A DNA stretch of 64,000 nucleotides from Bacteroidia bacterium. Its GTDB lineage: Bacteria; Bacteroidota; Bacteroidia; J057. The notes under the pieces were generated by a model. It searched no databases. It was given only the letters and a program-made list of their open reading frames with translations, and was not told the DNA's origin. The stretch spans positions 21,074-85,073 of the forward strand of contig JAUIKF010000008.1 in assembly GCA_030430575.1 (NCBI GenBank). The letters are read 5' to 3'. The number at the start of each line of letters is the position of its first letter. Position 1 is the first letter of the stretch. Below, in pieces: positions 1-29,924 of the stretch. A program made the translations under genes and the position numbers.

Positions 1-527
1 GTGCCGTGGCAGAGAAAGCCAAAGCCATGCAAGAATTGGATGGCGTAGGCAAAGAGCACGAAGAGTTTAAGCTTCGCTTGGAGAAGGAGAAAGCCGTCGA
101 ATTGGCGACGATAGACATCCAGCGCGAGATCGCTGCGGCCCAAGCCAAGGTCTTGGCAGAAGCCCTCAAAGCAGCCAATATCGAGATCGTCGGTGGCGAT
201 CAGGAGTTCTTCGACCGCATCACCAATGCCATCACCCAAGGGCGCTCTGTCGACCGCCTCATGGACAGCAGCACCAACTTGACTGATGTCAAGAAAGCCC
301 TCATCGGCGACGGTAACGGCAATTTTGGCAGCAAAATCAAGGACATGGTCAAGCAATTAGGCCTCAGTTCTGAGGACGTGAAGAACCTGACCATCTCTGC
401 CTTGCTGTTCCAATTGATGGACAAGTCCAAGGACAAGGACCAGAAATCTGCCTTGCAGAATTTGCTCGCGACTGCTACGCAGTTGGGCTTGGCGGATAAG
501 ACGGCCGCGTCGCTGGGCCTTAGCTAG
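1..527 (+). CDS. Flotillin/SPFH-family protein, C-terminal fragment; the 5' end lies beyond the window edge
   Basis: The ORF runs off the 5' window edge. The C-terminal helical region is Ala/Glu/Lys-rich and contains '...AKVLAEALKAANIEIVGGDQEFF...', which resembles flotillin/YqiK C-termini. An in-frame GTG lies at position 6. Confidence 0.5.
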   Translation, partial: AVAEKAKAMQELDGVGKEHEEFKLRLEKEKAVELATIDIQREIAAAQAKVLAEALKAANIEIVGGDQEFFDRITNAITQGRSVDRLMDSSTNLTDVKKALIGDGNGNFGSKIKDMVKQLGLSSEDVKNLTISALLFQLMDKSKDKDQKSALQNLLATATQLGLADKTAASLGLS

Positions 528-692
528 GAAGTTGAAATCAAACCATATAAGGCATATAAGATCATTTAAGGAAAAAATTATGAGTGATGAAGGATAACGA
601 GTGAGAAAATAACACATTCATAATTCCTTCATTCAACATTAATCTTATATGCCCTTAAATGTCTTATATGGTTCCTCTCTTAATGGAACTAC

Positions 693-1403
693 ATGAAATA
701 TTCATTCATCATCATTCTGCCGCTTCTGATAATAATTGCCTGCACCAGCGCAGGCCCAGCTAACGGCGTAGAGACCAATGCTCAAAAGCTACACTACGCG
801 CCAGAAGCAGAAGCCCGCATCGAAGCCTGCCTCTCCCTGGCAGAACAATCAGCGGACGGACAGTTGTACCAAATGATGAATAATGGAAAGGTGGCCTTTG
901 AGCAAACGCACAGAGTAGCAATCACCGAAGTAGGAAACGGCAATGGCTATCATTTCATTGAACTGTACAATGTCTATATCAATGAAGATGACGGAACCAC
1001 AGAGTACTACCTCTCGGAATTTACCTTGAGAAAAGAGGACTTTGGTGGTAAACACAGCAGCGAAGACTTTCGCGTGGTGGTAGCAGCCGACTCCGCCTAT
1101 ATTTACCTAAATGAAAAATCATTCTTTCAGCTCAGCCAAGTGAGAGAAATCACAGTTGATGATGGGTCATTTCCTGTCTACGAACTGCTCGGCTATTCAC
1201 ATAGCCACGGAGACGACCCCAACGCCATCAAGGACTTCAGTGACCGGAACCCCCCAGCCTATTACAAATACTGGAGTCCTTTGCTAGGCACCCTTTTGGT
1301 CCGCAGTACAGACGAGATGCAATATGAGCTAGCAAAGACTGGCGACAAGGCGCAAGACAAATTGGTGGAAAAGCTGAAAGCAGGATTAGAAGAAGAAAAA
1401 TGA
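693..1403 (+). CDS. Hypothetical lipoprotein (236 aa)
   Basis: Signal peptide followed by a lipobox (LIIIAC). No recognisable domain. Confidence 0.6.
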   Translation: MKYSFIIILPLLIIIACTSAGPANGVETNAQKLHYAPEAEARIEACLSLAEQSADGQLYQMMNNGKVAFEQTHRVAITEVGNGNGYHFIELYNVYINEDDGTTEYYLSEFTLRKEDFGGKHSSEDFRVVVAADSAYIYLNEKSFFQLSQVREITVDDGSFPVYELLGYSHSHGDDPNAIKDFSDRNPPAYYKYWSPLLGTLLVRSTDEMQYELAKTGDKAQDKLVEKLKAGLEEEK

Positions 1404-1522
1404 GTAAATAGGAAAAACCTCTCTTGAGATTCTATCATCCTATCATCCACTCATTCTATCATTTTCTTCCTCCCATTTTATCATTTATTCATCTACTCAT
1501 TTAATCATTCTCCCCCCCTCCG
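1404..1522 (+). promoter_or_regulatory. Pyrimidine-rich 5' leader carrying 'ACTCATTCTATCATT' / TCAT-repeat motifs
   Basis: Reiterated 'tcatcc / tcattct / atcatt' units lie immediately upstream of the start codon at 1523. The same motif recurs upstream of the minus-strand gene at 39427 and within 22290–22400. Confidence 0.4.
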
Positions 1523-4500
1523 ATGCCCGATAAACAACATACTTCTCAAGATATACAAATGGAAGGCGGCGCCTATGAACTCATTCGCAAGCGCCTCCTC
1601 GGCCAGAGTGACCTGCTTCGCGACCGCATGGGCCAGCTCAACGCGGCTCGGAAGGAGATATTCGGCGCGGTAGACACCACTCTCCTCGCCAACGACCGCA
1701 TCACCACGGACAATAACTGTATCCCCAGAGACATGGTCGCCATTGACAACCACTTTGTCTTTGGCTACAATGTCCATATTGGGCTAAGGACTGAGATCAA
1801 GATCTCTGACGTCTTTAGCATGTACCGCTTTGAGCCGTCGGATCACTCCTTTCACCAGGAGTCGCTCGACATGCTGGGTGACAAGCAGTTCGCAGAAGAT
1901 TTCCTCAACCTCTACAAATACTACAAAAACACTGTTTTTTCGAAGTTTGCCGTTATAGGGCCGCATTTGTATATGGTCTTTCAAGTAGGCAAAGGGGTAC
2001 AGGACATCAAGTCCTTCAAGTGGGCCATCAAAGAAAATGAACTCATTTATCTAGGCAATCGCTTTGACCATGAAGTCAAATTTCCCCAGCAGCACGAATT
2101 TCGCTGGACCCGTGCCACGCGCGACATGCAGCGGCGCGGGACATCTCCCCATATTTCAGTCCTTGACCGTGTTTTTGTAGACACCTTGGGCGGCGACCTG
2201 ACCATCAAAGTCGAAGACAATACCGACACGGGCAAAGGCATTTACACCGAACCTGTAGACCACAAAGAACAGACCCTCGACGACGCGGAGTTCTATTTTG
2301 CGGACGTAGGCGGCCTGATTCTACTGAAAATCAAACCCTATCAGGAAGAGGACTTCCGCTACATTATTTTTAATGAAAAGCTACAAGAAGCCGTGCGCAT
2401 CGACGCCTTGGAACACGCAGGCGTATTGCTTCCTGACGGCCATGGCCTCATTTTCTCAGATGGGTATTACCTCAAAACCGGCGAGTTCAAAATTTTTGAC
2501 AATGAGCTCACGGACATGCACTTCGAGAAGCGCATCCCATCCCCCAATGGCGAAGACACGCTATTTGTCTTCTACAACCAGGTGTCAGGCTTATATGTCC
2601 TGATGCCCTATAACCTCGTTGAGCAGCGCGTCAATACCCCAATCTCCTGCCACGGCTACAGCATTTTCCCCAATGGCGAACTCTGCTATTTCAAGGCCGA
2701 GGAGACGCCTGGCAAGCACCACGTCGTGCAAGTATGGCAGACGCCCTACACCACGAGCGAATTTGTCGCTGCCGCCAAATCGGAAGGCTACCTCTACAAG
2801 GTAGGCAATAAGGACCTCGTCCGCGGCATGGCCGAATGCAACGAGTTGCTGGCTGTCATTCACAAGGATGATAGTTATTCGAGTCTGTATATAGATTTGG
2901 TCAAAAAGTGCAATGACATTCTGGATAGCTATTACTGGATCGACCACGAAGAGGCTTTTACCCTCTCCGAGCCGCTCAAAGGCATGCGTGACGCCTCTGC
3001 CACGGCCATCGACGAATTCGAAAAAGTACGCCGCCTCAAGGCCCATACGGCAGAGGAACTGAAACGCGTATCTTCGGAAGCAAATGCACTGACTGATAAA
3101 TTGAAGCGCTATAAGGCGAAGTCAGTAGACCAATTTGTGGGGTATCTGGCTGATCTGAGGCGGCTTCGGGGAGAACTTATTTCGCTGAAAGAATTGCGCT
3201 ATATCTCCTTGGAGCAGGTGGAAAAAATGGAGGCAACCGTCACGGAACAGACGGACAAAACAGCTAAGGCCTGTGTGACCTTTTTACTCCGAAAAGACGC
3301 CCTGGATCCCTATTTGAAAAAAGTCGAAGGAGAAAAGAAAGCGGCAGGAGAATTTGTGACAGTGGCAGAAGGAGAAAAGGTAGAGGAAAGAATCAACCAG
3401 ATCGGGCAAGAACTCGAATTGCTCATCCAGACGGTCAGCAACCTCAAGATCGATGATGCCACGCAGACGACCGCCATTATCGATAAAGTATCTGCTATCT
3501 ACTCGCAGTTGAATCAACTTCGAGCCAAGGTGCGCCAGCGCAGCAAGGAATTGAAAGGCACCGAAGCCGTTGCCGAGTTCAATGCGCAATTGAAATTGCT
3601 GAATCAGGCCGTACTGAATTACCTCGACCTCTGTGATACACCAGAGAAATGTGAGGAATATTTGACCAAATTGATGGTGCAGGTAGAGGAATTGGAGGGT
3701 AAATTCAGTGAGTACGATGAATTTGTAGCCGAACTGACAGGGAAGCGAGAGGAATTGTACAATGCCTTCGAAACGCGCCGCCTGAGCCAGGTGGAGGCGC
3801 TCAATAAGCGTGCGAGTTCTCTTCAAAGTGCTGCAGAGCGCATCCTCAAAGGCATTCAGAACCGCGTCTCCCGCTTCGAAGAAGCGACAGAGATCAATAG
3901 CTATTTTGCCGCGGATTTGATGGTGGAGAAGGTACGTGATATTGTCACTTCCTTGCGTGAAATGAACGACTCAGTCAAGGCGGGCGACATCGAAGCAAAG
4001 CTGAAGACGGTGCGCGAAGACACCTTGCGCCAGCTCCGCGACCGGACAGACTTGTATGTCCAGGGCGAAAATGTGATCAAATTTGGTCGCCACCACTTCT
4101 CTGTCAATGTGCAAGCCCTCGACCTTACTGTGGTCCCACGCGATGGAGAAATGTATTTCCACTTGTCAGGTACCAATTTTTTCGAAAAAATCACCGATCC
4201 CCAATTTCTGGATACACGCCCTGTTTGGGACCAGTTATTGGTTTCGGAAAATAAAGAGGTCTATCGGGGCGAATATTTAGCTTACCAAATCTTACAACAC
4301 CTCCGTCAACCCGACTCTATCAGCATCGATGAATTTCAGACATTCGACAGCGCCAAGGTCTTGGCGTTTGTTCAGGAATTCATGGCGCCTCGCTATCACG
4401 AGGGATATGTGAAGGGCGTGCATGATCAAGACGCAGCGAAGCTGCTGATGAGCCTTTCGGAGCTGAGCGCTGAGATCGATTTGCTGCGCTATGCGCCGCA

Positions 4501-6421
4501 GGCGCGTGCCATGGCCGCCGTCTGGTGGGAAGGCTTTGTAAGCGAAACGAAAAAAGCCTTGTTGGCCCATCGCCTGAAAGGCGCTGGCGTCGTCTTACAG
4601 ATATTCCCCAATACCCAGGAGTTCAGCGATTTGCTGGAAGACCTCCAAGAGCACCTCCGCCTATTCTGCGAAGTACACAAGCTTTTCCCTCAACACCTCG
4701 CGCCTCAAGCTGCCGAGTACCTGTTTTATGAACTTTCGTTGGGTGATCATTTTGTGATCAGCGGAGAGGCAGCCAAGGTCTATAAAGATTTTAACGCTTA
4801 CCTCAAAAAGAAGCGATCCGCCAAAAAATACGAGGAGTCTATCAAGCGATTGGCAGAGGCTCCAGAGCAGCGCTATGAATTGATTCAAACGTGGATTCGC
4901 GCCTATGCGGGGAGCAATGGGTACGCAAATGCTTTCAAAGCCTATGTAGAAGAAGTTGCGGCCATCATTTTCAGCAACCGCTTCGATGAGAAGCAGGTGC
5001 TCAATGTCGCCACGACTTTATCGGCCGAAGGCCTTACGGGTGAGCATGCCTTGATCCAGGAAAAAGGTGCTTACACGGTGGATTACATCCATTTCATGGA
5101 CAAACTGCGTCGCTTTGAGCGGGAAGTCGTGCCCATGTTTGAGCATTTTTCCGAGCTAAAAAAGGAGCTTACCGCCAAATTCAAGCAAGAATTGCGCTTA
5201 GCGGAATTCCAGCCGCGCGTGCTGACTTCATTTGTCCGCAACCAACTGATCGACGAAGTATACCTTCCCCTCATTGGCGACAACCTCGCCAAGCAGATCG
5301 GTACGGTAGGGGAAAATACGCGGACGGACCGCATGGGCATGTTGCTATTGATTTCGCCTCCAGGCTATGGTAAGACGACCTTGATGGAATACATCGCCAA
5401 TCGTTTGGGCTTGATCTTTATGAAGATCAATGGCCCTGCCATCGGTCACCATGTGACTTCCCTCGACCCTGCTGCTGCACCGAACGCGGCAGCCAAAGAG
5501 GAACTCGCCAAGCTCAACCTCGCCCTCGAGATGGGCGACAATATCATGCTTTACCTGGATGACATCCAGCATTGCAATCCCGAATTTCTCCAGAAATTCA
5601 TTTCCCTCGCCGATGGGCAGCGCAAGATAGAAGGCGTCTACAAAGGCCATACAAGGACGTATGACTTGCGTGGCAAGAAGGTCTGCGTCGTCATGGCTGG
5701 CAACCCTTATACAGAGTCTGGTGACAAGTTCCAGATCCCTGACATGCTCGCCAACCGCGCCGACACCTACAACCTCGGTGACATCCTCGGTGATAATGAA
5801 CTGGCCTTCAGCCACTCCTACATCGAGAACTCGCTCACTTCCAACGAGGTGCTTCATCGCCTTTCCACTCGTCCACAAGCGGACATCCACAAGCTGATTC
5901 ATCTCGCCAAGACAGGCGACGAAGGTATCTCCTTCGAGACCAATTTTGGCGCAGACGAATTGCAGGAGTACCTAAGCGTGTTGAAAAAATTACTGGTCAT
6001 CCAAGAGGTAGTCCTCAAAGTCAACCAGCAGTATATCTACTCCGCTGGCCAGGAAGACGCTTACCGTACAGAACCGCCCTTCCAGCTCCAGGGATCTTAT
6101 CGGAATATGAATAAGCTCGTGGAGAAGGTGGTTCCCATCATGAACGACAAGGAGCTAAAAACCCTGATTCTCTCTCACTACGAGAACGAGTCCCAGACCT
6201 TGACTTCTGGCGCAGAAGCCAATCTCCTCAATTTCAAGGAAATGATGGGCTGGGCGACAAAAGCTGAGCAGAAACGCTGGCTCACCATTAAGGAGACGTT
6301 TGTCCAGCAAAAAACCCTTTCAGGGGACCGGCTCGGACAGTTGGTCCAACAGATGGGCAGTTTTTCGGAGGGACTGTTGGGCATCAGAGATGCGCTGGAG
6401 GGGAGAGATCGCTCGGGCTGA
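1523..6421 (+). CDS. Giant 1632-aa protein with a C-terminal MoxR-like AAA+ ATPase domain
   Basis: Walker A 'ISPPGYGKTTLMEY'. Walker B and sensor region 'IMLYLDDIQHCNPEFLQKFISLADGQRKIEG' match the MoxR/AAA_5 pattern. 'VVMAGNPY...RADTYNL' is arginine-finger-like. Residues ~500–900 are long coiled-coil (E/K/L-rich). Confidence 0.8.
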   Translation: MPDKQHTSQDIQMEGGAYELIRKRLLGQSDLLRDRMGQLNAARKEIFGAVDTTLLANDRITTDNNCIPRDMVAIDNHFVFGYNVHIGLRTEIKISDVFSMYRFEPSDHSFHQESLDMLGDKQFAEDFLNLYKYYKNTVFSKFAVIGPHLYMVFQVGKGVQDIKSFKWAIKENELIYLGNRFDHEVKFPQQHEFRWTRATRDMQRRGTSPHISVLDRVFVDTLGGDLTIKVEDNTDTGKGIYTEPVDHKEQTLDDAEFYFADVGGLILLKIKPYQEEDFRYIIFNEKLQEAVRIDALEHAGVLLPDGHGLIFSDGYYLKTGEFKIFDNELTDMHFEKRIPSPNGEDTLFVFYNQVSGLYVLMPYNLVEQRVNTPISCHGYSIFPNGELCYFKAEETPGKHHVVQVWQTPYTTSEFVAAAKSEGYLYKVGNKDLVRGMAECNELLAVIHKDDSYSSLYIDLVKKCNDILDSYYWIDHEEAFTLSEPLKGMRDASATAIDEFEKVRRLKAHTAEELKRVSSEANALTDKLKRYKAKSVDQFVGYLADLRRLRGELISLKELRYISLEQVEKMEATVTEQTDKTAKACVTFLLRKDALDPYLKKVEGEKKAAGEFVTVAEGEKVEERINQIGQELELLIQTVSNLKIDDATQTTAIIDKVSAIYSQLNQLRAKVRQRSKELKGTEAVAEFNAQLKLLNQAVLNYLDLCDTPEKCEEYLTKLMVQVEELEGKFSEYDEFVAELTGKREELYNAFETRRLSQVEALNKRASSLQSAAERILKGIQNRVSRFEEATEINSYFAADLMVEKVRDIVTSLREMNDSVKAGDIEAKLKTVREDTLRQLRDRTDLYVQGENVIKFGRHHFSVNVQALDLTVVPRDGEMYFHLSGTNFFEKITDPQFLDTRPVWDQLLVSENKEVYRGEYLAYQILQHLRQPDSISIDEFQTFDSAKVLAFVQEFMAPRYHEGYVKGVHDQDAAKLLMSLSELSAEIDLLRYAPQARAMAAVWWEGFVSETKKALLAHRLKGAGVVLQIFPNTQEFSDLLEDLQEHLRLFCEVHKLFPQHLAPQAAEYLFYELSLGDHFVISGEAAKVYKDFNAYLKKKRSAKKYEESIKRLAEAPEQRYELIQTWIRAYAGSNGYANAFKAYVEEVAAIIFSNRFDEKQVLNVATTLSAEGLTGEHALIQEKGAYTVDYIHFMDKLRRFEREVVPMFEHFSELKKELTAKFKQELRLAEFQPRVLTSFVRNQLIDEVYLPLIGDNLAKQIGTVGENTRTDRMGMLLLISPPGYGKTTLMEYIANRLGLIFMKINGPAIGHHVTSLDPAAAPNAAAKEELAKLNLALEMGDNIMLYLDDIQHCNPEFLQKFISLADGQRKIEGVYKGHTRTYDLRGKKVCVVMAGNPYTESGDKFQIPDMLANRADTYNLGDILGDNELAFSHSYIENSLTSNEVLHRLSTRPQADIHKLIHLAKTGDEGISFETNFGADELQEYLSVLKKLLVIQEVVLKVNQQYIYSAGQEDAYRTEPPFQLQGSYRNMNKLVEKVVPIMNDKELKTLILSHYENESQTLTSGAEANLLNFKEMMGWATKAEQKRWLTIKETFVQQKTLSGDRLGQLVQQMGSFSEGLLGIRDALEGRDRSG

Positions 6422-6660
6422 GGAGACCGCTCGGGCTTCGAAGACTCAGCCCTCGCTGCGAGAAGCGAGACCGTTCGGGCTGCACCCTCACTGCGAGATC
6501 GCTCGGTTCGAAGACTCACCTCGCTGCGAGACAAGAGAGAAGTCTTTGCCTTTAGTCTCGTAGTGAGTCTTCGAGCGGTCTCGGTTCTCGCAGTCAGGAG
6601 CTCCGCGACGAACGATCTCGCAGTGAGCGCAGCGAACGGTCTCTAAACCAGACTCCTTTT
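6421..6660. repeat. Composite palindromic GC-rich intergenic repeat element (family A)
   Basis: Built from units such as 'gagaccgctcgg', 'cttcgaagactc', 'ctcgcagtgag' and 'gaacgatctcgcag'. About 85% identical to the 8655–8903 copy. Imperfect terminal inverted repeats. Confidence 0.85.
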
Positions 6661-6996
6661 AAACCCAAGAATCATTCTTCGAATTTCTGTAACAGCTGCG
6701 ACAAGCTGGTTGAGTTCTATTTCAGAAATAAAGTACAAGTCAAATGCAAGGTATAGTTGTGTTTCTACCTCGCATGAAGAACCGATAGCTATATCCAAAA
6801 AATGAGCAAGTTGTCTATTTGTTCCTCTTCCACACCCTTCTGAAATATTGGATGGGATAGAGACCGCGGCTCTTCTTATCTGAGATGTTAGCCCAAACTT
6901 TTCATTATCAGGAAATTTAGCAGAAATTGAGTATATGTTTTTAACAAAAAGTCTGGACTCCTTCCATACCGATAATTTTGCAAAATTATGTTTCAT
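6643..6996 (-). CDS. Four-helix-bundle protein ('23S rRNA intervening-sequence protein' family)
   Basis: 117 aa. Motifs 'GLTSQIRRAAVSIPSNISEGCGR' and 'FLDIAIGSSCEVETQL' are typical of PF05635 (TIGR02436). The gene sits between two family-A repeat copies. Confidence 0.75.
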   Translation of the reverse strand: MKHNFAKLSVWKESRLFVKNIYSISAKFPDNEKFGLTSQIRRAAVSIPSNISEGCGRGTNRQLAHFLDIAIGSSCEVETQLYLAFDLYFISEIELNQLVAAVTEIRRMILGFKRSLV

Positions 6997-7077
6997 GGTT
7001 TAGGGGATAAATAGGGCTTAAACAGAAATCTCAGTCACATTAGACGGAAAAACAAAGACTATCTAAACAAAGACCGC

Positions 7078-7262
7078 TCCCTACGGTCGCTGCGAGAGGC
7101 GAGACAATTCGGGCTCTGCCGAAAGGCAGTTCTTCTTGTCTCAAAGCGAGGGCGAGTCTTCGAGCCCGAGCGGTCTCGGTTCTCGCAGTGAGGAGCTCAG
7201 CGACGAACGATCTCGCAGCGAGGGTGAGTCTTCGAGCCCGAGCGGTCTCTTCTCAAAAAAAA
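7078..7262. repeat. Family-A palindromic repeat element
   Basis: Uses the same unit set ('gagtcttcgagcccgagcggtctc' appears twice). Immediately precedes the MATE start codon. Confidence 0.8.
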
Positions 7263-7282
7263 ACCTTAAGTTTGCTCCGCAA

Positions 7283-8653
7283 ATGTCCACCGGCCCAGCA
7301 CCAGACCTCAGCCAACGCATCCAGCAAGACGGCCTTTGGCGCCTCATGTGGAAGCTCTCCATCCCCGGCCTCTTGGGGATGTCTGTCAATGCTATCAACA
7401 ACTTTATGGACGCCCTTTTTGTGGGGCGAATGATCGGGGAAGACGCGTTTGCAGCCATTTCGCTGGCGTTTCCCATCATGTTTGTCGTGAGTAGCTTCAC
7501 GGCCATGACAGGGCAGGGGTCATCGTCCTTGCTGAGTAGAGCAATCGGTGCCAAAGACCTTGTCCAGCAGGAAAAAATCTACAGCAATCTCGTGGCACTC
7601 AACCTCATGATCACCTCTCTGCTCATGCTCGCAGGGTGGATATTTGCTCGAAAACTCATTGCCTTTATGGGAGGGCAAGGCCAGGTTTTGGAATATGGGA
7701 CACAATATTTTCGCATTATCGTGCTAGGCTCCTTCTTCCGCTCCTATGCCATCGGCACCAATATGCTCATCCGCGCCGAAGGCAATATGAAACATGCCAT
7801 GCTATTTGCTGCGCTGGCCGCAGGGCTGAATATTTGTCTCAATCCCCTCTTTATCGGGCCATTGGGCTTAGGGATCAAAGGCGCAGGATGGGCCACTGTC
7901 GTCTCTATGGTGTTTTATGGCCTCCTCAACCTCTGGTATTTCACCAAAGGCAAAGTCTCCTTTCCCATCAAACCTTTTGTCCTTTCACTTGACAAACCCA
8001 TCATCAAGGAAGTCATGTCAGTCGGCGTTTCTGCCATGGCCCTCCAGGCCATGTTTTTTGTGCAGCAAGCTGTAGTTTTCAAGTCGGTAGCACATTATGG
8101 CAATGATACAGAAATTGCCCTCATGGGAGCTGTATATCGCATTTTTCTACTTTTGGTGATTCCTTTGGTAGGGATGATGCAGGCCCTTCAAGCCGTAGTA
8201 GGCATCAATTATGGGGCAAAACTATATGGGCGGGTAAAAAAAGCCCTGGGAGTCTTCACCTTTAGTAGCACTCTGTTGCTCACCTGTGTATGGCTGTTTA
8301 TGGAATTATGGCCTCGTTTAATCTTGGGCTTACTACTGCCAAAAGTCGCCTTTGACGCCCATCAAATCTTCCTTTTCAGGGTAGCTATCGCTGCCATTCC
8401 GCTAACGGCCTTGCTATTTGCAGGCATATCATTCTTCCAAGCTCTGGGAGACGGGCTGAAAGCTACTGTCCTTCTGGTCTCCCGCCAAGTAGGCTTATTT
8501 GTGCCTGTGACTCTTCTCCTCCCGCTCTGGTGGGGCCTGGAGGGCATTTTCTATGCTGCTCCCCTCGTAGATTTCTTCGTCGCTTTTGTCCTGGTCTACG
8601 TCCTCTGGAGGCAAATTGTAAAATTGACGCGGGCGGAAGGAAAAAATAAGTAA
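7283..8653 (+). CDS. MATE-family efflux transporter
   Basis: Twelve predicted TM helices with a MATE signature N-terminus '...LWRLMWKLSIPGLLGMSVNAINNFMDALFVGR'. The start was chosen at the ATG (7283) after the repeat; the listed ORF start at 7136 is a repeat-encoded extension. Confidence 0.8.
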   Translation: MSTGPAPDLSQRIQQDGLWRLMWKLSIPGLLGMSVNAINNFMDALFVGRMIGEDAFAAISLAFPIMFVVSSFTAMTGQGSSSLLSRAIGAKDLVQQEKIYSNLVALNLMITSLLMLAGWIFARKLIAFMGGQGQVLEYGTQYFRIIVLGSFFRSYAIGTNMLIRAEGNMKHAMLFAALAAGLNICLNPLFIGPLGLGIKGAGWATVVSMVFYGLLNLWYFTKGKVSFPIKPFVLSLDKPIIKEVMSVGVSAMALQAMFFVQQAVVFKSVAHYGNDTEIALMGAVYRIFLLLVIPLVGMMQALQAVVGINYGAKLYGRVKKALGVFTFSSTLLLTCVWLFMELWPRLILGLLLPKVAFDAHQIFLFRVAIAAIPLTALLFAGISFFQALGDGLKATVLLVSRQVGLFVPVTLLLPLWWGLEGIFYAAPLVDFFVAFVLVYVLWRQIVKLTRAEGKNK

Positions 8654-8654
8654 A

Positions 8655-8903
8655 TTAGACCGTTCGGGCTTCGAAGACTCAGCCCTCACTGCGAGAGACG
8701 AGACCGTTCGCGCCTGCGGCACTCACTGCGAGACCGCTCGGCTCGAAGACTCACCTCGCTGCGAGACAAGAGAGAAGCCTTTGCCTTTAGCCCTTCGATA
8801 AACTCAGGGTAAATCTCGTAGCGAGTCTTCGAGCGGTCTCGGTTCTCGCAGTGAGGAGTTCCGCGACGAACGATCTCGCAGTGAGCGCAGCGAACGGTCT
8901 CTT
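8655..8903. repeat. Family-A palindromic repeat element
   Basis: Near-identical to 6421–6660. Ends 1 nt before the ATG of the CHAT-like/NTPase/WD40 gene. Confidence 0.85.
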
Positions 8904-11900
8904 ATGGCTAACCTACCCGTCATATTCCTGGCATTTGCCAATGAGCGCGAAGACGAAGCGCGCTACTTGCGCGCGCTGGCTGTGGAGCAGCGTCAGTTGA
9001 AAGCTGCCCTGGAACAAGCAGTAGATGCGGGGCTATGCGAACTGGTCATTGAGTCGAATGCGACCATTGATAGCATCATGGATACATTCCAGCGGGCACG
9101 CTACAAAGACCGCATCGCGGTATTTCACTATGGGGGTCATGCAGATGGCTTTCAGCTACTACTTGAAACCGAAACGGATCGCAATGAAGTGGCACATGGA
9201 GAAGGGTTGGTTTCCTTCCTGGGTGGGCAAAATAGCTTACAGCTTATTTTTCTCAATGGCTGCGTGACGCATCAGCAAGCAGAAGAACTCACCCAAGCGG
9301 GGGTTCCCGCTGTTATTGGCACCTCCAATTCCATCAACGACAAGATCGCGACCCAGCTCTCCTCTCGCTTCTATGCAGGCCTGGCCAACGGAGCCACGCT
9401 CACCCGCGCCTGGAAGGAAGCCCAGGATGAGATCAAGATCAAAAAGGGTACGGGAAATGTCCGTGGGCTATATTTCAGGAAAGAAGCCAAAGGGGAAGAA
9501 CGCTTTCCCTGGGAGCTGTATCTGCGCGAAGGAGCGGAGATTGTACAGGAATGGAACCTGCCTGAGGCGGTGGACAATCCCCTCTTTGGCCTCCCAGATT
9601 TACCTTTATCCTACAAACTTCCCGATCAACCGTACCGCTTTTTGGAGCGCTATTATGAGGGACATGCAGAGATTTTCTTTGGGCGTTCTTATGCGATCAG
9701 GGATCTGTATGAACGAACGGCTGCGGCTCAGGGCGCGCCGATCATTTTGTTTTATGGGCAGTCAGGGGTGGGAAAATCGTCTTTACTGGATGCAGGGCTC
9801 TTACCTCGTCTTCGTCAAGACTTCGAAGTGGTATATGCGCGTCGTAGCCAACGAATAGGGCTAGGCGATACGCTTGGCCATGCCTTGGGTCAAGTCTCAG
9901 GTGCTTCTTCTATGGAAGAAGGCCCGATTCGGAGCTTCTCTGGCGCACAATTTAAACGCGAGCAGGAGGCTGAACGCATTCAGCAGATGGAAGCGCTGGC
10001 TGCAGGGATGGAAGGGGAAGCCAAAGCGCAAATCTTGCAGGTACTGGCTGATCTCAAATCCCAAAATGGTCATGCCCCTTCTCCTATTTCACCTACCGAG
10101 CTTCCTCCTACAGACTCCTTATTGGAACAGTGGAAGGCCATAGAGACAGAGACAGGGCGTCCCCTGGTGGTCTTGCTTGACCAGGCAGAAGAAATGTTTA
10201 CCCGGCCCTGGAGCCATCAACAAGATGAGCTTCAGGCGTTTTTAGCGGAGGTAAAGTCTATTTTTGGGCGAGGTGATCGCAGACCCAAAGGCAAATTGAT
10301 CCTCAGTTATCGCAAAGAATACAATCCTGAGATAGAAGAAGCCTTCAAAAAGCAAAAGCTTCCGCGCGAGAAGGTATTCCTCAAACAACTCAGCAAGAAA
10401 GACATCACAGAAGTAGTTCATGGACTTGGCAAAAATGAACGGCTCAAGAACCTCTATCACTTGAGTGTGGAGCCAGGGTTGGGGGAAATGATTGCAGATG
10501 ATTTGTTGGTAGACAAAGACTCTCCTATTGCGCCCGTCTTGCAGATTTTGTTGACAAAAATGTGGCTGAATGTCGAGCGGGACGAAAATCGATATTTTAC
10601 CATCGCCGCATACCAGGACCTGCGAAAGGACGGCATCTTGATGGAGGACTTCCTGGAAGAGCAGCTAGCCAAATGCCGCAGTTGGCGACCTGAGATCGTG
10701 GATTCTGGCCTTGCGCTTGATTTACTCAATTATCATACGACCTCTTTGGGAACTGCTGAAACGCATGACCTAGCCGAAATCCGTGCGCGATATGCCCACC
10801 GTCAGGACGTCCTTGACGACCTGGTCAGCAAACTCAAGGAGCTCTACCTCCTCACCGACGCTGGCGCGGAGATGACAGGCCTGGCTCATGATACCTTGGC
10901 GCCGCTGGTAAAGCAGATGATCAGGAACTCTGATCAGCCCGGTCACCGCGCCTTGCGCATCATCCAGCAGAAGACGCCCGAGTATGTCAAAGATCACGAA
11001 AATGTGATCGATGAAGCAGACCTCAAAATCGTCGAAGCAGGCTACCTAGGCATGCGCATGTGGTCTGATACAGAGCGAGAACTCGTGGAAGCCAGCCGTA
11101 AGAAGCGGGTGAAAGCAGCGCGCTTTCGCAAGAATTTGAGGCGACTGGCGGTGCTGGCAGTGTTGCTGATTTTGATGGGCTTGGTGTGGGCGCTGTATGA
11201 GCAAGGGGTAGCAGTGGAGAAGGCAGAATTAGCCAATAGAAAAACAGCAGAGGCTGATAGTAGTGCACAGGTGGCTATTCAGAAAGCAATTGAGGCAGAT
11301 AGTTCTGAAAAAGCTGCTCGGGCGGCAGAGCAGGTAGCATTAGCGGCAAAACAGGATGCGCTAGATGAAAAGGCTCGGGCTGATAGTGCTAAAAATGCTG
11401 AGGTTGAGGCCAACGCTAGGTTAAAGGAAGCAATAGCAGAAGTGAGGGCTGAAAAGCAACGTGCAGACGAAAGTACGGATGCAGCCATTCGAGCAAATGA
11501 TTCTCTCCAAATACAAAAGGATGTAGCAGAAGAGAAAACAAAACTTGCTAAGACAAACGCCGCCAGAGCCGATTCCCTCCGCGAACTCTCACTCGCCAAA
11601 ACCCTGGCGATCAAGTCCTTAGGCGTAGAACAAGATTCCACTCAAGGCATACTGGCCATGCAAGCCTACGCCTTGAATAAGGCTAAAAATGGGGACCCAT
11701 TGGACCCAGATATCTACCGCGCTTTGCACGATGCATGGCAAACGTTTGAAGGACATCAGCGCAACCAATACCGCGCACACGATAGCAATGCCCAGGTAAG
11801 GGCATTGCGCTACACCTCAAATGGGCGCCTATTTTCTACGGGAAGTGATGGGCGGCTTTTTGAGTGGCAAATTGGTGATGCTTTCACTCCACCAAGAGCC

Positions 11901-12866
11901 AGTCCTCCCCTGACAGAAGTCCCTCAGGTCAACCTGGCCTTGGCAGCCAGTAGCCAGGGAGATTGGCTTGCTGGCACTAACTGGCGGGTAGGGACCTCCA
12001 GCACAAAATCGCTACAGGAATTTCCTGTCGCACAATCTCCCCTGGCTGCGATAGAGATCGGCGCATTTCCTCAAGGCGATGCGCAACAACTAACCTTTTT
12101 GCCTGGCCAAAACGCTTTCTTCTTCACGAGCCGGGCAGACGACACTTTGCGGTATTATCACCTGGACCAAAAGCGCGTAAAGCCCGTCTCAACGACAGGA
12201 GCTATCTCTAGGGCATTGGCTATCAGTCCAGATGGCCGCTGGCTAGCCCTCATCACCGACCGGGCAGATATCCTGCTCTATTCGCTCAATCCCCCTTCCC
12301 TCCCTGACCAATTGCCAGCACCAGAAATCATATTCCATGGCTCCCCCGCTATTGCAGGCAAGCAATATGCGATTGCTTTCAGTAAGTTGATGGCAAACGG
12401 GCAGTATCAGTTGGCTTGTGGGTTGGGCAAAAAGGAGAAAACAGAAATACATTTATTTACCATCAACTCGGTAGGCAGGCGTATCCAGCACGATCATTTT
12501 TTGGGGCACAATGCGCCCATTAACGAAATAGTGTTTCACCCCCAAAGTGCCCTTATGGCATCTGCTAGTCAGGATGGGACGACACGGATTTGGCAGACGG
12601 CCAGGCCGTTGGATTTACCTATTATCCTTGAATATGTCTCTGCCGCCAGCAACCGAAAGGTATGGGCCACGACCCTCAGTTTCAGCCGGGGAGGCAGGGA
12701 GCTCATTACAGGGTATAATGATGGGATGGTCAAGGTATGGCCTGTCTATGCATCAGATATCGCCAAGGAATTATGCCCTTTGCTTCAAGGGAAACAGCTT
12801 TCACAAGAGGAATGGATTCGTTATGCCAATACAACGGAAAAACTGTCTGAATATCAGTGTAATTAA
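8904..12866 (+). CDS. STAND-like signalling protein: CHAT-like (caspase-fold) domain, P-loop NTPase, one TM helix, coiled coil, WD40 beta-propeller
   Basis: The N-terminus carries a His/Cys dyad in the 'VFHYGGHADG' and 'IFLNGCVTH' motifs, a CHAT-like caspase fold. Walker A 'LFYGQSGVGKSSLLDAG'. Hydrophobic helix 'LAVLAVLLILMGLVWALY' at ~aa 750. An Ala/Glu/Lys coiled coil follows. C-terminal WD40 repeats ('DGRLFEW', 'DGTTRIWQ', 'GMVKVWP'). Confidence 0.8.
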   Translation: MANLPVIFLAFANEREDEARYLRALAVEQRQLKAALEQAVDAGLCELVIESNATIDSIMDTFQRARYKDRIAVFHYGGHADGFQLLLETETDRNEVAHGEGLVSFLGGQNSLQLIFLNGCVTHQQAEELTQAGVPAVIGTSNSINDKIATQLSSRFYAGLANGATLTRAWKEAQDEIKIKKGTGNVRGLYFRKEAKGEERFPWELYLREGAEIVQEWNLPEAVDNPLFGLPDLPLSYKLPDQPYRFLERYYEGHAEIFFGRSYAIRDLYERTAAAQGAPIILFYGQSGVGKSSLLDAGLLPRLRQDFEVVYARRSQRIGLGDTLGHALGQVSGASSMEEGPIRSFSGAQFKREQEAERIQQMEALAAGMEGEAKAQILQVLADLKSQNGHAPSPISPTELPPTDSLLEQWKAIETETGRPLVVLLDQAEEMFTRPWSHQQDELQAFLAEVKSIFGRGDRRPKGKLILSYRKEYNPEIEEAFKKQKLPREKVFLKQLSKKDITEVVHGLGKNERLKNLYHLSVEPGLGEMIADDLLVDKDSPIAPVLQILLTKMWLNVERDENRYFTIAAYQDLRKDGILMEDFLEEQLAKCRSWRPEIVDSGLALDLLNYHTTSLGTAETHDLAEIRARYAHRQDVLDDLVSKLKELYLLTDAGAEMTGLAHDTLAPLVKQMIRNSDQPGHRALRIIQQKTPEYVKDHENVIDEADLKIVEAGYLGMRMWSDTERELVEASRKKRVKAARFRKNLRRLAVLAVLLILMGLVWALYEQGVAVEKAELANRKTAEADSSAQVAIQKAIEADSSEKAARAAEQVALAAKQDALDEKARADSAKNAEVEANARLKEAIAEVRAEKQRADESTDAAIRANDSLQIQKDVAEEKTKLAKTNAARADSLRELSLAKTLAIKSLGVEQDSTQGILAMQAYALNKAKNGDPLDPDIYRALHDAWQTFEGHQRNQYRAHDSNAQVRALRYTSNGRLFSTGSDGRLFEWQIGDAFTPPRASPPLTEVPQVNLALAASSQGDWLAGTNWRVGTSSTKSLQEFPVAQSPLAAIEIGAFPQGDAQQLTFLPGQNAFFFTSRADDTLRYYHLDQKRVKPVSTTGAISRALAISPDGRWLALITDRADILLYSLNPPSLPDQLPAPEIIFHGSPAIAGKQYAIAFSKLMANGQYQLACGLGKKEKTEIHLFTINSVGRRIQHDHFLGHNAPINEIVFHPQSALMASASQDGTTRIWQTARPLDLPIILEYVSAASNRKVWATTLSFSRGGRELITGYNDGMVKVWPVYASDIAKELCPLLQGKQLSQEEWIRYANTTEKLSEYQCN

Positions 12867-12904: not shown

Positions 12905-14149
12905 ATGTACGCATCCCCATATTCGGTTAGGCTTCTTCTCTTCCTCTGGGTGCTCCTGCTTTTGAGCACTCCGCTCTCTGCTCAGGACGCTATGAACGGT
13001 TGCAACAACGCCTACCCCAGGGCCTTACAAAGCTTCAATGATGGCAACATAGAAGACGCCATACAGTTACTGAATCCCTGCCTTACAGACGTCCGAAAGG
13101 GAGAAGGCCTGACAGGCAACCTGCGTATAGAAGGCCTAAGGTTGTTAACAATCTGTCATCTTTATGTACAGAATGATGCCGAAGCGACCCAAAGAATGAA
13201 AATGCTGCTAAAGGTAGCCCCATCCTATGAAATCAGGAGTACTGACCCGATTGAATTTCGCTATCTCTATTATACTTTTCGCACCGATCCCTTCTTATTT
13301 ATCAATGCTAAACTAAACGCTAACCTCACCTTCCCGATTGTCACCAATAGTTATACAATAGATCACAATCGTGCGGGAGATCGACAAGATGCTTACAGAG
13401 AACGAGTGGACGGAGGCGTACTCCTAGGTATAGATGTTCCCTTAAATAGGCAGGTCATGCCCGCCTTTGGCCAGCGGTTGAAACACCGCGACACCGTAGG
13501 AATTGGATTCTTCTCCCTGCAACTGGAGTTGGCTTATCAGCGGCATAGCTACCTGTATGAGCATGAAATGCATACCGACCCTTCACTCAACCTCAATTAT
13601 ACAACCGTTCTGTTTCGTGAGTCTCAGCAGTGGCTGGAAGTACCTATTGCCCTGAAATATACGCCCCCTTCCAAACGGTCTATCCGACCTGGCTACCGAG
13701 AAGTGGAAGGGTTCTGGTTGTTTAATCGGGTGGTTCCCTATGTCTTTGTGGGAGGAGCGGCTCACGTCTTGCTACAAAGCAAATTCTCTAGCCTCAACCG
13801 AATCGCTGACAACCGGCAATTGAACAATCCCCCCGTTGTGGAACTGACTGTCATTGATCGCAATGACCAAGAGCAGACAACCACCCGCTTACCGCGCAAG
13901 CGCTACAATTTTTCAGTCATGGGAGGGGTCGGTGCCAAATGGTGGGCGGGCCGGGATTATATCACGGCAGAATTGCGCTTCAACCAAAAGCTGGTGAATT
14001 TTATCGATGTTCAAAACCGTTACCAAAATCAAACCTTGTCGCATCTGTTTGGCTATGTCGATAGTGATGCGCTCTTGCAGCATTTTTCTTTTTGGCTAGG
14101 GTATCAACATCCCATTTTTCGACCTAGACAGAAAAAAGAAAAAAAATGA
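12905..14149 (+). CDS. Secreted protein, possible outer-membrane beta-barrel (414 aa)
   Basis: Signal peptide. The second half has alternating amphipathic beta-strand character. Lies 38 nt downstream of the CHAT-like/NTPase/WD40 gene on the same strand. Confidence 0.55.
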   Translation: MYASPYSVRLLLFLWVLLLLSTPLSAQDAMNGCNNAYPRALQSFNDGNIEDAIQLLNPCLTDVRKGEGLTGNLRIEGLRLLTICHLYVQNDAEATQRMKMLLKVAPSYEIRSTDPIEFRYLYYTFRTDPFLFINAKLNANLTFPIVTNSYTIDHNRAGDRQDAYRERVDGGVLLGIDVPLNRQVMPAFGQRLKHRDTVGIGFFSLQLELAYQRHSYLYEHEMHTDPSLNLNYTTVLFRESQQWLEVPIALKYTPPSKRSIRPGYREVEGFWLFNRVVPYVFVGGAAHVLLQSKFSSLNRIADNRQLNNPPVVELTVIDRNDQEQTTTRLPRKRYNFSVMGGVGAKWWAGRDYITAELRFNQKLVNFIDVQNRYQNQTLSHLFGYVDSDALLQHFSFWLGYQHPIFRPRQKKEKK

Positions 14150-14156
14150 AATACGC

Positions 14157-15497
14157 ATGAATTGTATCAGCAATACAGGAATAGAGATAAGGGATAAACG
14201 GGTTGAGAAAATAGCTCCCCTTAAAAGCTATGCTTCTTTCATCAAGCTGGCAGCCTTGCAGGTGATCGCTTTGCTTTTGTGGGGTTGTTCGCCTTCTGAC
14301 ACCCCTTCCCCCGATCAGGCAGATCGCTTTATCAAAATATTCGGCGGAGCAAACAATGAATTGGCAGCAGGGCTCTCACTAGACGATGATGGTGGATACA
14401 GGATTCTTGGAACTACCTATTCTACCGAAGACCCTATGGAAGCGAACAGGCATTCGGATATCTATATCGTGAAGACAAATGTGTATGGCGATGCGCAATG
14501 GTCTCGCAGGTTTGACTTTCAGCAAGGCCATGACTTCGCTCATGACCTGACAACCTTTGGTAGCCACAACATCCTTTTGGCTTCTGCCACAGATACCGCA
14601 ACTGACCACAAACACCTATGGGTCCTGGACCTAGACTTTGCGGGGGCTAGTCAAACGCTGGTGGATTTCACCTTCTCCGTTGAAGGTCATGACTTCGAAG
14701 GGGCCTCAATTCTTCCCTTAGATGATGGGGTCCTCATTTTGGGTACGACAACGTGGGTCGATACCGAAAAGGCTACGCCTTCGGGAGGCTTTGTCGGTGA
14801 CAGTACAGACATCTTTTTGGCACAATTCTCTCTTCAAGGGGATACCCTTTGGAGCCGAAGATTGGGGTTTGAAGGCACGGACCGTGGGGTAAAAGTCCTG
14901 GCCCAGGCTGAAGGGGGGTATGTATTCCTTGCCCAGACAGATTTTGGGGAGGATCCCGACGCCGCAGGCTTGGGGACTTACCTTGCCATTACCAATTCTT
15001 TTGGCGTACCTACGATCACCCGACGGATAGAGCAGGTGATCCCAGGGGATCTGCAAGCCACGGCTGACGGAGGGTATGTCATGATTGGGACTTCTTACCA
15101 ATCGGGAGATTCCTTGCTCTATTTAGCTAAGCTAAATCCCTGGCTGGAACTGGTATGGACGCAAACTTACGAAGGTCTTGGGACCGCCAGTGGGCGGTCT
15201 TTGGCCGTGGTTCAGGCGGAAGGTTCTGGAGAACGCTATTTACTTGGAGGCCATACCCGTACTGCTCAAGCAGAGGATTCAGACCTTTACCTCACCTTAG
15301 TAGATGAATCAGGGGTCGAGCTCTGGACAGATGATGGCAAAGGCCTAAGGACGTATGGAGGCCCACAAGATGAAATCTGTCGCGCTGTAAAAATGACGGA
15401 TGATGGTGGCTTTGCAGTGCTCAGCAGTCAGGAATTCGGAGAAACCTTTATCATGAATTTGTTGAAGGTAAATGCGGAGGGGCGGTTGGATCCTTGA
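14157..15497 (+). CDS. Lipoprotein with beta-propeller-like repeats (446 aa)
   Basis: Lipobox 'LLWGCSPS'. Repeated 'DGGY…LGTT / DGGYV' blades. Lies 7 nt after the preceding gene. Confidence 0.6.
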   Translation: MNCISNTGIEIRDKRVEKIAPLKSYASFIKLAALQVIALLLWGCSPSDTPSPDQADRFIKIFGGANNELAAGLSLDDDGGYRILGTTYSTEDPMEANRHSDIYIVKTNVYGDAQWSRRFDFQQGHDFAHDLTTFGSHNILLASATDTATDHKHLWVLDLDFAGASQTLVDFTFSVEGHDFEGASILPLDDGVLILGTTTWVDTEKATPSGGFVGDSTDIFLAQFSLQGDTLWSRRLGFEGTDRGVKVLAQAEGGYVFLAQTDFGEDPDAAGLGTYLAITNSFGVPTITRRIEQVIPGDLQATADGGYVMIGTSYQSGDSLLYLAKLNPWLELVWTQTYEGLGTASGRSLAVVQAEGSGERYLLGGHTRTAQAEDSDLYLTLVDESGVELWTDDGKGLRTYGGPQDEICRAVKMTDDGGFAVLSSQEFGETFIMNLLKVNAEGRLDP

Positions 15498-21562: not shown

Positions 21563-22420
21563 TTATCTTATCACCACCGTCTCTCCCTGCACCACCGATG
21601 CGCGGAAGAACCCCAGCGCGCCACCTGAGATATTGACTGAGATATTGGCGGGGGGCGCGCCGAAGGGACTGCCAGAGCCCGACTGCTGGACCCAGCTGAA
21701 GTAGAAGTCGTAGGCTTCTTGCGTGAGGGTGGCAAATTCCAATCGAGCCGTGTCGCCACGACTAACAGGGAAGGGTACGATGAAGCCGTTGATGTATTGG
21801 CCTTGGGCAAAGCGGTCGTCGAAAAGCAGGTAAGGCACGATTCCATCTCGGTAGGCCGTGTCTTGCACATACATCCTGGTCAGGTAGAAGGAGCGAATAT
21901 CGGGATCATTCCTCGCATAAAACCGCAAATAGTAGCCCGTATCTGGTACCAAGACAGTCGTGGGGAAGTAGACATAATTCACTGAATCTAGCACGTCAGC
22001 GCTAGGCAGGAAAGAAGAAGCGGTATAGGTCTGGTCGTCATAAATCACTTCCAAATCATAGGTGCGCCCTACTACGCCTTCAAGTCCTTCTGTCTCGTAC
22101 CTGCCTGGCAGGACTTCCTTCAACTGCACGGCATTGCCTGTGTCGTCAGCAATGCGCACAAGCGCCCCACTCACTGCCGCTGGCGCTGCGGTGTCATAGA
22201 GGGGCTGAGTTTGGCTCAGCAGGACGTAATGCGGTCCTGGACCGTCGGTCACGAGCCCTTCGATGACCAGTTGCTGGTCGGCGTCGCGGAGGGGGAGTTC
22301 TATGGGTTCTTCGCAAGAAGAGAAGAAAATGAGAGAATGAATGAATGAGAGAATGATAGAATAAGAAATGATGAATGAAGGAATTTTGAATGTTAAATGA
22401 GGGAATATTTTGGGTGTCAT
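21563..22420 (-). CDS. DUF4249-like lipoprotein (285 aa)
   Basis: Lipobox 'FFSSCEEP'. Located immediately downstream of a TonB-dependent receptor on the same strand, a conserved Bacteroidota pairing. Confidence 0.5.
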   Translation of the reverse strand: MTPKIFPHLTFKIPSFIISYSIILSFIHSLIFFSSCEEPIELPLRDADQQLVIEGLVTDGPGPHYVLLSQTQPLYDTAAPAAVSGALVRIADDTGNAVQLKEVLPGRYETEGLEGVVGRTYDLEVIYDDQTYTASSFLPSADVLDSVNYVYFPTTVLVPDTGYYLRFYARNDPDIRSFYLTRMYVQDTAYRDGIVPYLLFDDRFAQGQYINGFIVPFPVSRGDTARLEFATLTQEAYDFYFSWVQQSGSGSPFGAPPANISVNISGGALGFFRASVVQGETVVIR

Positions 22421-26448: not shown

Positions 26449-26620
26449 GAGAATTCATAAAAATACATTTTTGACTAAAAAATGATGTTTTAAAAACGAT
26501 ATAATCAAGCAATCCTGAAATAGTGTCAGTCTATTCATCAATATTATCGACTAATTAGTCGAATGGTAAACCTATGCATTAATTAATACAGATTTATAAA
26601 ATGATAATATATTAATTATT

Positions 26621-29278: not shown

Positions 29279-29528
29279 AAATTTTCTCATAATAACTCTA
29301 AAAGTATTTTTATGGAACTTTATGAATTGGTATGATAAACGCATTAAAATTTGGTTGTGCTATATTTTCAATGCTGTGTATTGTTTCAAAATTTCCCTAA
29401 ATCAGTTTGGGGCCGCTAAATAGCTACTTTTCAGATTCCTACTGAAAGAAAAATAAAAATCATTCTTAAATATTCACAAATGCGAATCAAATACATACCC
29501 CACTTCTCCAAGTTCCATGCTAAAGATA

Positions 29529-29852
29529 TCACTTCCCCGGCAGTCCCATCACATACTCATAGCTCTCATTCAAGTACCCCGCCAAGCGGTCCAGGTCCTC
29601 CAACATGCTGTCAGGCACCAGCACATAACCGCGCATCACAGCGCCGTGGGATTTGAAGATGGTGGAGTTCCATTCTTCGATGTATTTTTGTTGGACTTCT
29701 TTGGAGAAGCGAAAGCCGAGTTCACCGGCTTTGTTGAGGAAGGAGAACATGTGACCGTTGGCGGAGGTGTAAGGGCCGGTTTTGCCCTTGCGTTCGAATC
29801 GGGGGCATTTGGCGACAAGTTCGTCGTAGATGGCTAGTTTTTGTTCCCACAT
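29529..29852 (-). CDS. Small hypothetical protein (~107 aa)
   Basis: Intact ORF. The start was chosen at the internal Met ('MWEQKL…'). Confidence 0.45.
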   Translation of the reverse strand: MWEQKLAIYDELVAKCPRFERKGKTGPYTSANGHMFSFLNKAGELGFRFSKEVQQKYIEEWNSTIFKSHGAVMRGYVLVPDSMLEDLDRLAGYLNESYEYVMGLPGK

Positions 29853-29924
29853 AGGAAAATTATTAATTATTGATTGAGTGATGAGTCTCCTCCTGATAGT
29901 CAAATTTGACTTTTCCCTCATTGC

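Follow-up and report, generated by a model that had tools for sequence, protein, structure and literature searches.

Why should a giant ATPase be encoded behind a flotillin gene, and what might the two proteins do together? The question is raised by the first 6,421 nucleotides of a stretch of 64,000 nucleotides from a Bacteroidia bacterium (GTDB lineage Bacteria; Bacteroidota; Bacteroidia; J057; NCBI GenBank assembly GCA_030430575.1, contig JAUIKF010000008.1, positions 21,074 to 85,073 of the forward strand), which we refer to at its full length as the window. A sequence-only reading of this DNA had proposed that a flotillin, a lipoprotein and a 1632-residue coiled-coil protein ending in a MoxR-type AAA+ ATPase form a membrane-microdomain-associated machine. 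Our analysis suggests, with a probability that we put at roughly 55%, that this DNA covers the distal genes of a conserved membrane-stress operon in which the ATPase would use ATP to remodel the flotillin scaffold or its clients. The pairing of the two genes is real, and it is not new. Ravi et al. (mSystems 2024; PMC11237479) described from comparative genomics an operon consisting of YqiJ/YuaF, a Band-7/flotillin protein and a “beta-propeller + coiled-coil + AAA+ ATPase”, which occurs with or without CesT/Tir-PspA and was tied to PSP membrane dynamics. They called its abbreviated form widespread and listed Dokdonia donghaensis as a Bacteroidota example (their Table S3). The association proposed in the sequence-only reading is therefore correct but was already published, the ATPase family being catalogued as DUF3686, and the locus is an ordinary further copy of a described, widespread gene set.

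Three genes make up the region, all on the forward strand and at the positions first given for them:

1 to 527, + strand: 3′ end of a flotillin (YqiK-type, SPFH) gene; 174 C-terminal residues, in frame from nucleotide 3, stop codon at 527
693 to 1403, + strand: lipoprotein gene; 236 residues, with signal peptide and lipobox
1523 to 6421, + strand: DUF3686-family ATPase gene; 1632 residues, assigned from Pfam and homologs, NCBI name “DNA repair ATPase”

The comparison of relatives revealed a flotillin gene directly upstream of the ATPase gene, with zero to two small genes between them, in 13 of 13 loci from five named phyla (Bacteroidota, Planctomycetota, Pseudomonadota, Actinomycetota and Deinococcota). 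The adjacency is thus kept well beyond the genome in which it was first noticed, other Bacteroidota included. This set was built from homolog-encoding contigs and annotated plasmid records; a whole-protein scan of a genome collection found two loci only, as its peptide patterns were too specific. The loci, 13 with the window, comprise two Marinilabiliaceae metagenome-assembled genomes (L001 and L002), Symmachiella (Planctomycetota), Pontibacter sp. G13, Chondrinema, another genome, three metagenome-assembled contigs, the Pseudomonas fluorescens plasmid pQBR103, a Streptomyces plasmid, a Deinococcus plasmid and Proteus mirabilis. Their gene order runs from a small gene (144–233 residues) through the flotillin gene (643–732 residues) and the zero to two small genes to the ATPase gene. 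The first small gene stands in the YqiJ/NfeD position and precedes the flotillin wherever the upstream DNA is present and intact. Its product in L002 has transmembrane segments, an OB-like C-terminus, a weak match to Pfam YqiJ_N and a match to Escherichia coli YqiJ (E value 2e-4). For the genome studied here, we infer that the yqiJ-like gene and the SPFH domain of the flotillin lie upstream of window position 1; a look-up of the window's own ATPase returned a contig of 4971 bp that carries this one gene.

The surroundings of the module vary among the loci. In L006, CesT/Tir and PspA genes precede it and DUF4178, DUF350 and spermine synthase genes follow, and on pQBR103 it is preceded by genes for PspA, a rhomboid protein, a DUF350 protein and glutathionylspermidine synthase. 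Several copies reside on plasmids or megaplasmids (pQBR103, Streptomyces, Deinococcus, Hymenobacter). The two Marinilabiliaceae have two further membrane-stress-type neighbours: an M50B-like peptidase gene lies before the yqiJ-like gene, and a 136-residue protein with similarity to TerB/DjlA is encoded directly after the ATPase gene (L001, 10773–11183; L002, 12909–13319).

As the window holds only the end of the flotillin gene, the identity of the 174-residue fragment rests on its full-length neighbours in the relatives and on profile comparison; a homolog search with the fragment itself gave short fragments only, and Pfam had no match for it. The fragment matches all of the 11 ATPase-linked flotillins compared, with E values from 1e-80 to 1e-7. 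In eight loci it aligns over nearly its whole length, at 43–71% identity, with the C-termini of proteins of 681–732 residues encoded upstream of the ATPase, and three further loci gave a weaker or partial match (31–47% identity). In Symmachiella dynata, it is 45% identical to residues 512–684 of the 695-residue protein encoded directly upstream of the ATPase. A profile of five full-length upstream proteins aligned with E. coli YqiK over residues 12–416 (hhalign probability 99.9%, E value 1.4e-36), and RefSeq names the Streptomyces and Pseudomonas versions “flotillin family protein” or “SPFH domain-containing protein”. The flotillin call made from the fragment is borne out by these comparisons: the upstream proteins of the relatives belong to the YqiK family, and the window fragment matches their C-termini. 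The Pfam models Band_7 and Flot did not match the ATPase-linked flotillins even at an E value of 5, and a PDB profile search with the same proteins found only QmcA (E value 0.01).

No counterpart of the window's flotillin tail is detectable in E. coli YqiK. Since the tail is present in the 11 ATPase-linked flotillins and not in YqiK, it constitutes a signature of ATPase-linked flotillins, and its distribution makes it a candidate docking site for the ATPase. The window also encodes a second, conventional SPFH/Band_7 protein of 363 residues (31455–32546, + strand; Band_7 E value 4e-30), which lies 25 kb downstream and has no linked ATPase.

The giant open reading frame is a real gene: among 5.8 billion proteins searched, one entry is 100% identical to its product, and the homologs number more than 5400. 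The top 120 listed come from Bacteroidota and Planctomycetota, share 55–71% identity with the window protein, nearly all over the full length, and are usually named “DNA repair ATPase” (NCBI) or “MoxR-like ATPase” (JGI). Full-length homologs extend across many phyla at 35–71% identity, and an exhaustive search with residues 1–500 as query gave 765 clusters at 50% identity (E value of at most 1e-3). Because most non-fragment members are about 1600–1930 residues long, aligning end to end, the architecture of the family appears uniform. Along the window protein it can be divided as follows:

1616 to 2935, + strand: DUF3686 domain, residues 32–471; a long N-terminal helix, about seven four-stranded beta units and C-terminal helices in a bundle
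2936 to 4072, + strand: coiled-coil stalk, residues 472–850, recognised by heptad score and poor in proline and glycine; DUF7902 lies inside it at nucleotides 3296–3550
4073 to 5242, + strand: middle region, residues 851–1240; the least conserved part, with a mean majority fraction of 0.51–0.57
5243 to 5782, + strand: AAA+ alpha/beta core, residues 1241–1420; Walker A GYGKT at nucleotides 5363–5380, Walker B LDD at nucleotides 5555–5563
5783 to 6418, + strand: helical lid and C-terminal helical extension, residues 1421–1632; helices throughout in the model

The DUF3686 model PF12458, described in Pfam as “ATPase involved in DNA repair”, matches residues 32–471 at an E value of 2e-189 and over profile positions 2–448 of 448. 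In the structural model, the beta units of this domain form what is predicted to be a divergent beta-propeller. DUF7902 (PF25472) matches residues 592–676 at an E value of 1.9e-26, and a crude heptad score flags residues 500–530, 614–683 and 747–830. The original description of about 1100 N-terminal residues as beta/alpha and coiled-coil regions was thus roughly right, given these heptad segments and a beta-rich model of residues 1–500 with flanking helices. The middle region gave no match in Pfam or the PDB, and its residues 1101–1240 are modelled as helices plus two short strands. Towards the C-terminus, the Pfam AAA model matches at an E value of 2.6e-6, with weak matches to AAA, AAA_22, RuvB_N and AAA_5 around residues 1264–1397.

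Conservation was assessed in an alignment of 34 sequences, those from Deinococcus, Pseudomonas and Streptomyces among them. It is highest in the AAA+ core, where 80 of 180 residues are invariant and the catalytic motifs are intact. Both motifs quoted in the sequence-only reading are present, GYGKTT at residues 1281–1286 (nucleotides 5363–5380) and LDDIQH from residue 1345 (nucleotide 5555). Further features of the core are a pre-sensor-1 beta-hairpin (residues 1368–1381), sensor-1 N1394 and a candidate arginine finger, R1412. The invariant positions include K1284 of Walker A, the Walker B pair DD at 1346–1347, N1394 and R1412, as well as R1515 and R1527, which are candidates for sensor 2. No protease domain was found in the ATPase and no transmembrane segment was noted; the protein appears to be soluble, with a long stalk. 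Immediately downstream of its gene, and converging on it, lies a gene for a member of the 23S rRNA intervening-sequence protein family, a four-helix bundle protein resembling bAvd (6643–6996, − strand).

To which AAA+ clade does this motor belong? In the model, the nearest structures to the core are those of the MoxR proteins CbbQ and NorQ, followed by midasin and dynein, and the pre-sensor-1 beta-hairpin looked for as a mark of the MoxR-type fold is present. At the sequence level, AAA_5 scored 25.2 bits on the isolated domain (cut-off 22) and 22.9 bits on the whole protein, the generic AAA model scored higher (30.8 bits), and AAA_3, the model for MoxR proper, was not detected on the ATPase. 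Sequence matches to solved structures span only a stretch of 35 residues around Walker A and are p97-like. A place in the classical AAA clade (p97, Vps4, FtsH) was rejected despite these best sequence matches, which cover the P-loop stretch only, the pre-sensor-1 insertion being present. An SMC/Rad50-type head was likewise rejected, as the N-terminus is a helical bundle with a propeller and the ATPase one contiguous C-terminal AAA+ domain. MoxR ATPases are normally paired with VWA proteins, and the sequence-only reading had called for a check on a missing partner of this kind. No VWA/MIDAS domain was found among the open reading frames of at least 150 residues in the 64-kb window, nor in the 13 neighbourhoods. 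As modelled, the ATPase module is MoxR/AAA_5-like in fold, yet a family of its own; of the earlier MoxR/AAA_5 assignment, the fold stands and membership among the canonical MoxR proteins does not (no AAA_3 match, no VWA partner, Walker B with DD).

Taken together, these findings are consistent with an operon that encodes, in this order, a yqiJ/nfeD-like membrane protein, a YqiK-type flotillin and the giant ATPase. The flotillin and its NfeD-type partner would oligomerise into a scaffold at the cytoplasmic side of the membrane. The ATPase, with its motor at the C-terminus and a long coiled-coil stalk tipped by a divergent beta-propeller, would form a ring via its AAA+ module and contact the scaffold through stalk and propeller, possibly via the tail that is unique to ATPase-linked flotillins. 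ATP hydrolysis might then assemble or disassemble the scaffold or strip its clients, in concert with PspA where that protein is linked. Such a logic would be akin to that of MoxR with its VWA partner, or of midasin, with the propeller in place of the VWA/MIDAS adaptor. In a more specific and tentative version, the ATPase could be a flotillin “disassemblase”, a hexameric MoxR/midasin-like motor whose six stalk-borne propellers would grip the cognate flotillin tail to open, recycle or reposition SPFH cages; we consider the odds to be against this version. If it were true, some bacterial flotillin microdomains would be actively driven by ATP, in analogy to the ESCRT-III–Vps4 and SNARE–NSF pairs.

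Several points weigh against remodelling of the scaffold or its clients as the function of the operon. With DD in place of DE in Walker B, ATP hydrolysis might proceed slowly or serve regulation. Another activity could reside in the middle 390 residues of the ATPase, and the SPFH domain and yqiJ-like gene of this genome lie beyond the window edge. Furthermore, synteny shows functional coupling without giving its direction, and the flotillin could recruit the ATPase to other clients. Finally, our literature search found no experimental study of any member of the family.

Among the rival explanations, the one that survives best develops the point about direction. In it, the ATPase has other membrane proteins, or the membrane as such, for its substrate and serves in extraction, quality control or repair, and the flotillin is a recruiting platform only, as HflK/C is for FtsH. 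The synteny evidence for such a platform equals that for remodelling, the HflK/C–FtsH pair is an established precedent, and membrane proteases adjoin the module in some loci, namely the M50B-like gene of the two Marinilabiliaceae and the rhomboid gene on pQBR103. The ATPase, however, has neither a protease domain nor a noted transmembrane segment, and the tail of the ATPase-linked flotillins argues for direct contact, though it does not identify the substrate. We regard a purely recruiting flotillin as doubtful, even if on present data it is inseparable from the remodelling that we favour.

Alternatively, the protein could be a canonical MoxR chaperone for the maturation of an enzyme or metal centre, with its VWA partner and client encoded elsewhere and the flotillin serving as an anchor. 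Here the structural matches to CbbQ and NorQ, the AAA_5 score above threshold and the “MoxR-like ATPase” labels at JGI meet the lack of a VWA/MIDAS gene in the window and the 13 neighbourhoods and of an AAA_3 match. Moreover, some 1240 residues at the N-terminus give the protein a built-in adaptor that is missing from canonical MoxR proteins, and no conserved candidate client enzyme is encoded nearby; the explanation is therefore disfavoured and in our view unlikely.

A role in conflict or anti-phage defence, with a giant NTPase as sensor and effector on a membrane scaffold, for example in abortive infection by membrane damage, is improbable and likewise disfavoured. A large ATPase with coiled coil and propeller would suit such a role, several copies are carried by plasmids or megaplasmids, and CHAT-domain proteins are encoded nearby downstream in the window (8904–12866) and in L014. 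On the other hand, PADLOC gave no match for the three window proteins at an E value of at most 0.01, and no effector domain (nuclease, protease, TIR or pore-former) was detected. The uniform architecture and the identity of 55–57% between the Bacteroidota and Planctomycetota ATPases are unlike fast-evolving defence genes, and the recurring neighbours are stress-response genes (PspA, polyamine), CHAT genes being absent from the other loci.

The weakest explanation, a true DNA repair ATPase that works on DNA as an SMC/Rad50-like coiled-coil protein next to an irrelevant flotillin, is suggested by the NCBI and Pfam names, the long coiled coil and a weak RuvB_N match (23–27 bits) confined to the P-loop, and is very improbable given a contiguous C-terminal AAA+ domain instead of an ABC head split by a coiled coil, RuvB and p97 matches that span only about 35–45 residues around Walker A, no DNA-binding or nuclease domain detected in the ATPase, and no recurring repair genes in the 13 neighbourhoods, all of which contain the flotillin and some of which contain PspA. 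The name itself has no traceable experimental basis, as we found no mention of DUF3686 or PF12458 in the literature. Searches for flotillin with “DNA repair ATPase”, YqiK/YqiJ with ATPase, flotillin with MoxR, and SPFH/NfeD/AAA+ returned nothing relevant. Neither domains nor context back the “DNA repair ATPase” label of the databases, which probably misleads.

Between the flotillin and ATPase genes, the window carries a lipoprotein gene and two non-coding features that require separate consideration. The lipoprotein call made from the sequence is borne out: by inspection of the N-terminus of the product, MKYSFIIILPLLIIIAC, we find a signal peptide and the lipobox IIAC with Cys17. Homologs of 24–27% identity occupy the same position in L005, L014 and L015, and the cysteine is invariant in all four proteins. 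The ATPases of these three loci are among the closest to that of the window (61–71% identity). A hidden Markov model built from the four lipoprotein sequences found no copy in the other loci; the window protein itself had no match in Pfam, NCBIfam or PADLOC, and a homolog search returned only itself. Kinship to the 256-residue protein of the L006 polyamine operon was considered and rejected, as the two are unrelated. The lipoprotein gene is thus accessory and specific to one clade, where it has been inserted behind the flotillin gene and ahead of the ATPase gene. The two non-coding features are:

541 to 673, + strand: long imperfect hairpin of 133 nucleotides, within the 165-nucleotide spacer between flotillin stop and lipoprotein start
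1429 to 1521, + strand: G-free 5′ leader of 93 nucleotides, with degenerate TCATT/ATCAT repeats, ending one base before the ATPase ATG

The outer arms of the hairpin measure 30 nucleotides and are 83% complementary. Its predicted RNA fold has an energy of −41.2 kcal/mol (z-score −4.76), matched by none of 200 shuffles, and it occurs as a single copy in the window. Rfam found nothing in window positions 1–9000, the hairpin included, and a scan for sigma-70 promoters and terminators performed no better than on shuffles. The hairpin could be a terminator, a processing site or a scar of the insertion of the lipoprotein gene, and may lie outside the module.

The leader repeat noted in the sequence-only reading is real but is not conserved outside the closest relative and is not part of the conserved system. 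Its 13-mer TCATTCTATCATT occurs in one exact copy (1451–1463) and in three copies at two mismatches between positions 1435 and 1509. In the whole window, there are 13 occurrences within two mismatches compared to 2.5 expected, a number reached by none of 100 shuffles. The closest relative, L014, carries a different tandem repeat in its leader (AAACCCG/AAACTCA, positions 5900–6000), which is also G-poor (5 G in 90 nucleotides); the other 11 loci have ordinary ATPase leaders. A G-poor leader with a different repeat suggests selection on composition and not on sequence. Long G-free, TCATT-rich runs were also observed at or near the 5′ ends of unrelated genes in the window (22315–22417, 39443–39484 and 41155–41200, all − strand). 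The first of these, with 103 nucleotides, is the longest G-free run in the window, and the similar runs stand at two other gene starts. They suggest that leaders or signal-peptide regions that are repeat-like and depleted of G are a general trait of the genome and not an element specific to the operon. We rejected a conserved regulatory function of the repeat in the operon, because the repeat sequence is not conserved and similar runs occur at other window genes; the G-free leader is read as a lineage-specific, low-structure, local feature.

Elsewhere in the window we detected several features that are independent of the module. A 1320-residue protein (8904–12866, + strand) has a domain make-up that typifies conflict systems: a CHAT protease, an nSTAND1 NTPase and WD40 domains. 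The two open reading frames after its gene (12905–14149 and 14157–15497) have no Pfam match. In L014, genes for an S8 peptidase and a TPR-CHAT protein lie just downstream of the giant ATPase. The VRP1, ABC_toxin_N, neuraminidase-like and TcA_TcB_BD domains of a 2541-residue protein (55085–62710, − strand) make it similar to TcA, a subunit of ABC (Tc) toxin complexes. Positions 26001–30000 form a low-GC island (0.35–0.37 compared to about 0.48–0.50 elsewhere), possibly acquired horizontally, which holds an 885-residue open reading frame (26621–29278) with a sub-threshold DUF4394 match only.

The function of bacterial flotillins and the active remodelling of their assemblies are unsettled, and a syntenic, highly conserved ATPase partner provides a concrete handle on both. 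Genetically tractable carriers are at hand in Proteus mirabilis, P. fluorescens SBW25 with pQBR103, and Streptomyces.

How does the module compare with known systems? Relative to the operon of PMC11237479, protein architecture and gene order are the same. The window represents the abbreviated form without an adjacent PspA gene, and L006 and pQBR103 show the extended one, to which CesT/Tir-PspA and polyamine genes are added. The clade of the window differs by the lipoprotein gene between flotillin and ATPase. The published description leaves the AAA+ clade unassigned, and the present analysis adds a motor predicted to be MoxR-like in fold and without a VWA partner, the invariant DD of Walker B and the shared tail on the ATPase-linked flotillins. 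Compared to the Pfam-defined DUF3686 + DUF7902 + AAA family, there is no difference at the sequence level, and hundreds of homologs share the length and domain order of the window protein.

Compared to E. coli YqiJ–YqiK and Bacillus subtilis YuaF–FloT, the upstream proteins of the relatives are homologous to YqiK over the transmembrane, SPFH and coiled-coil parts, and a YqiJ-like gene precedes them. However, the ATPase-linked flotillins are longer than YqiK (643–732 compared to 553 residues) and carry an extra C-terminal tail of about 170 residues, and the yqiJK locus of E. coli K-12 has no such ATPase gene alongside. In the MoxR family (CbbQ, NorQ, RavA) and midasin/Rea1 we find the closest counterparts of the modelled fold of the motor. 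In contrast to them, the window protein carries a single AAA+ module behind about 1240 residues, has no VWA/MIDAS partner or domain and no AAA_3 match, shows DD instead of DE in Walker B, and resembles classical AAA proteins in its P-loop region.

SPFH cages are also found at work with AAA+ machines in other systems, namely HflK/C with FtsH and prohibitin with the m-AAA protease. These pairs share with the flotillin–ATPase module an SPFH scaffold and an AAA+ enzyme at the membrane, and the likeness is a functional analogy: unlike FtsH and the m-AAA protease, the ATPase described here has no protease domain, belongs to another AAA+ clade and appears to be a soluble protein with a long stalk.

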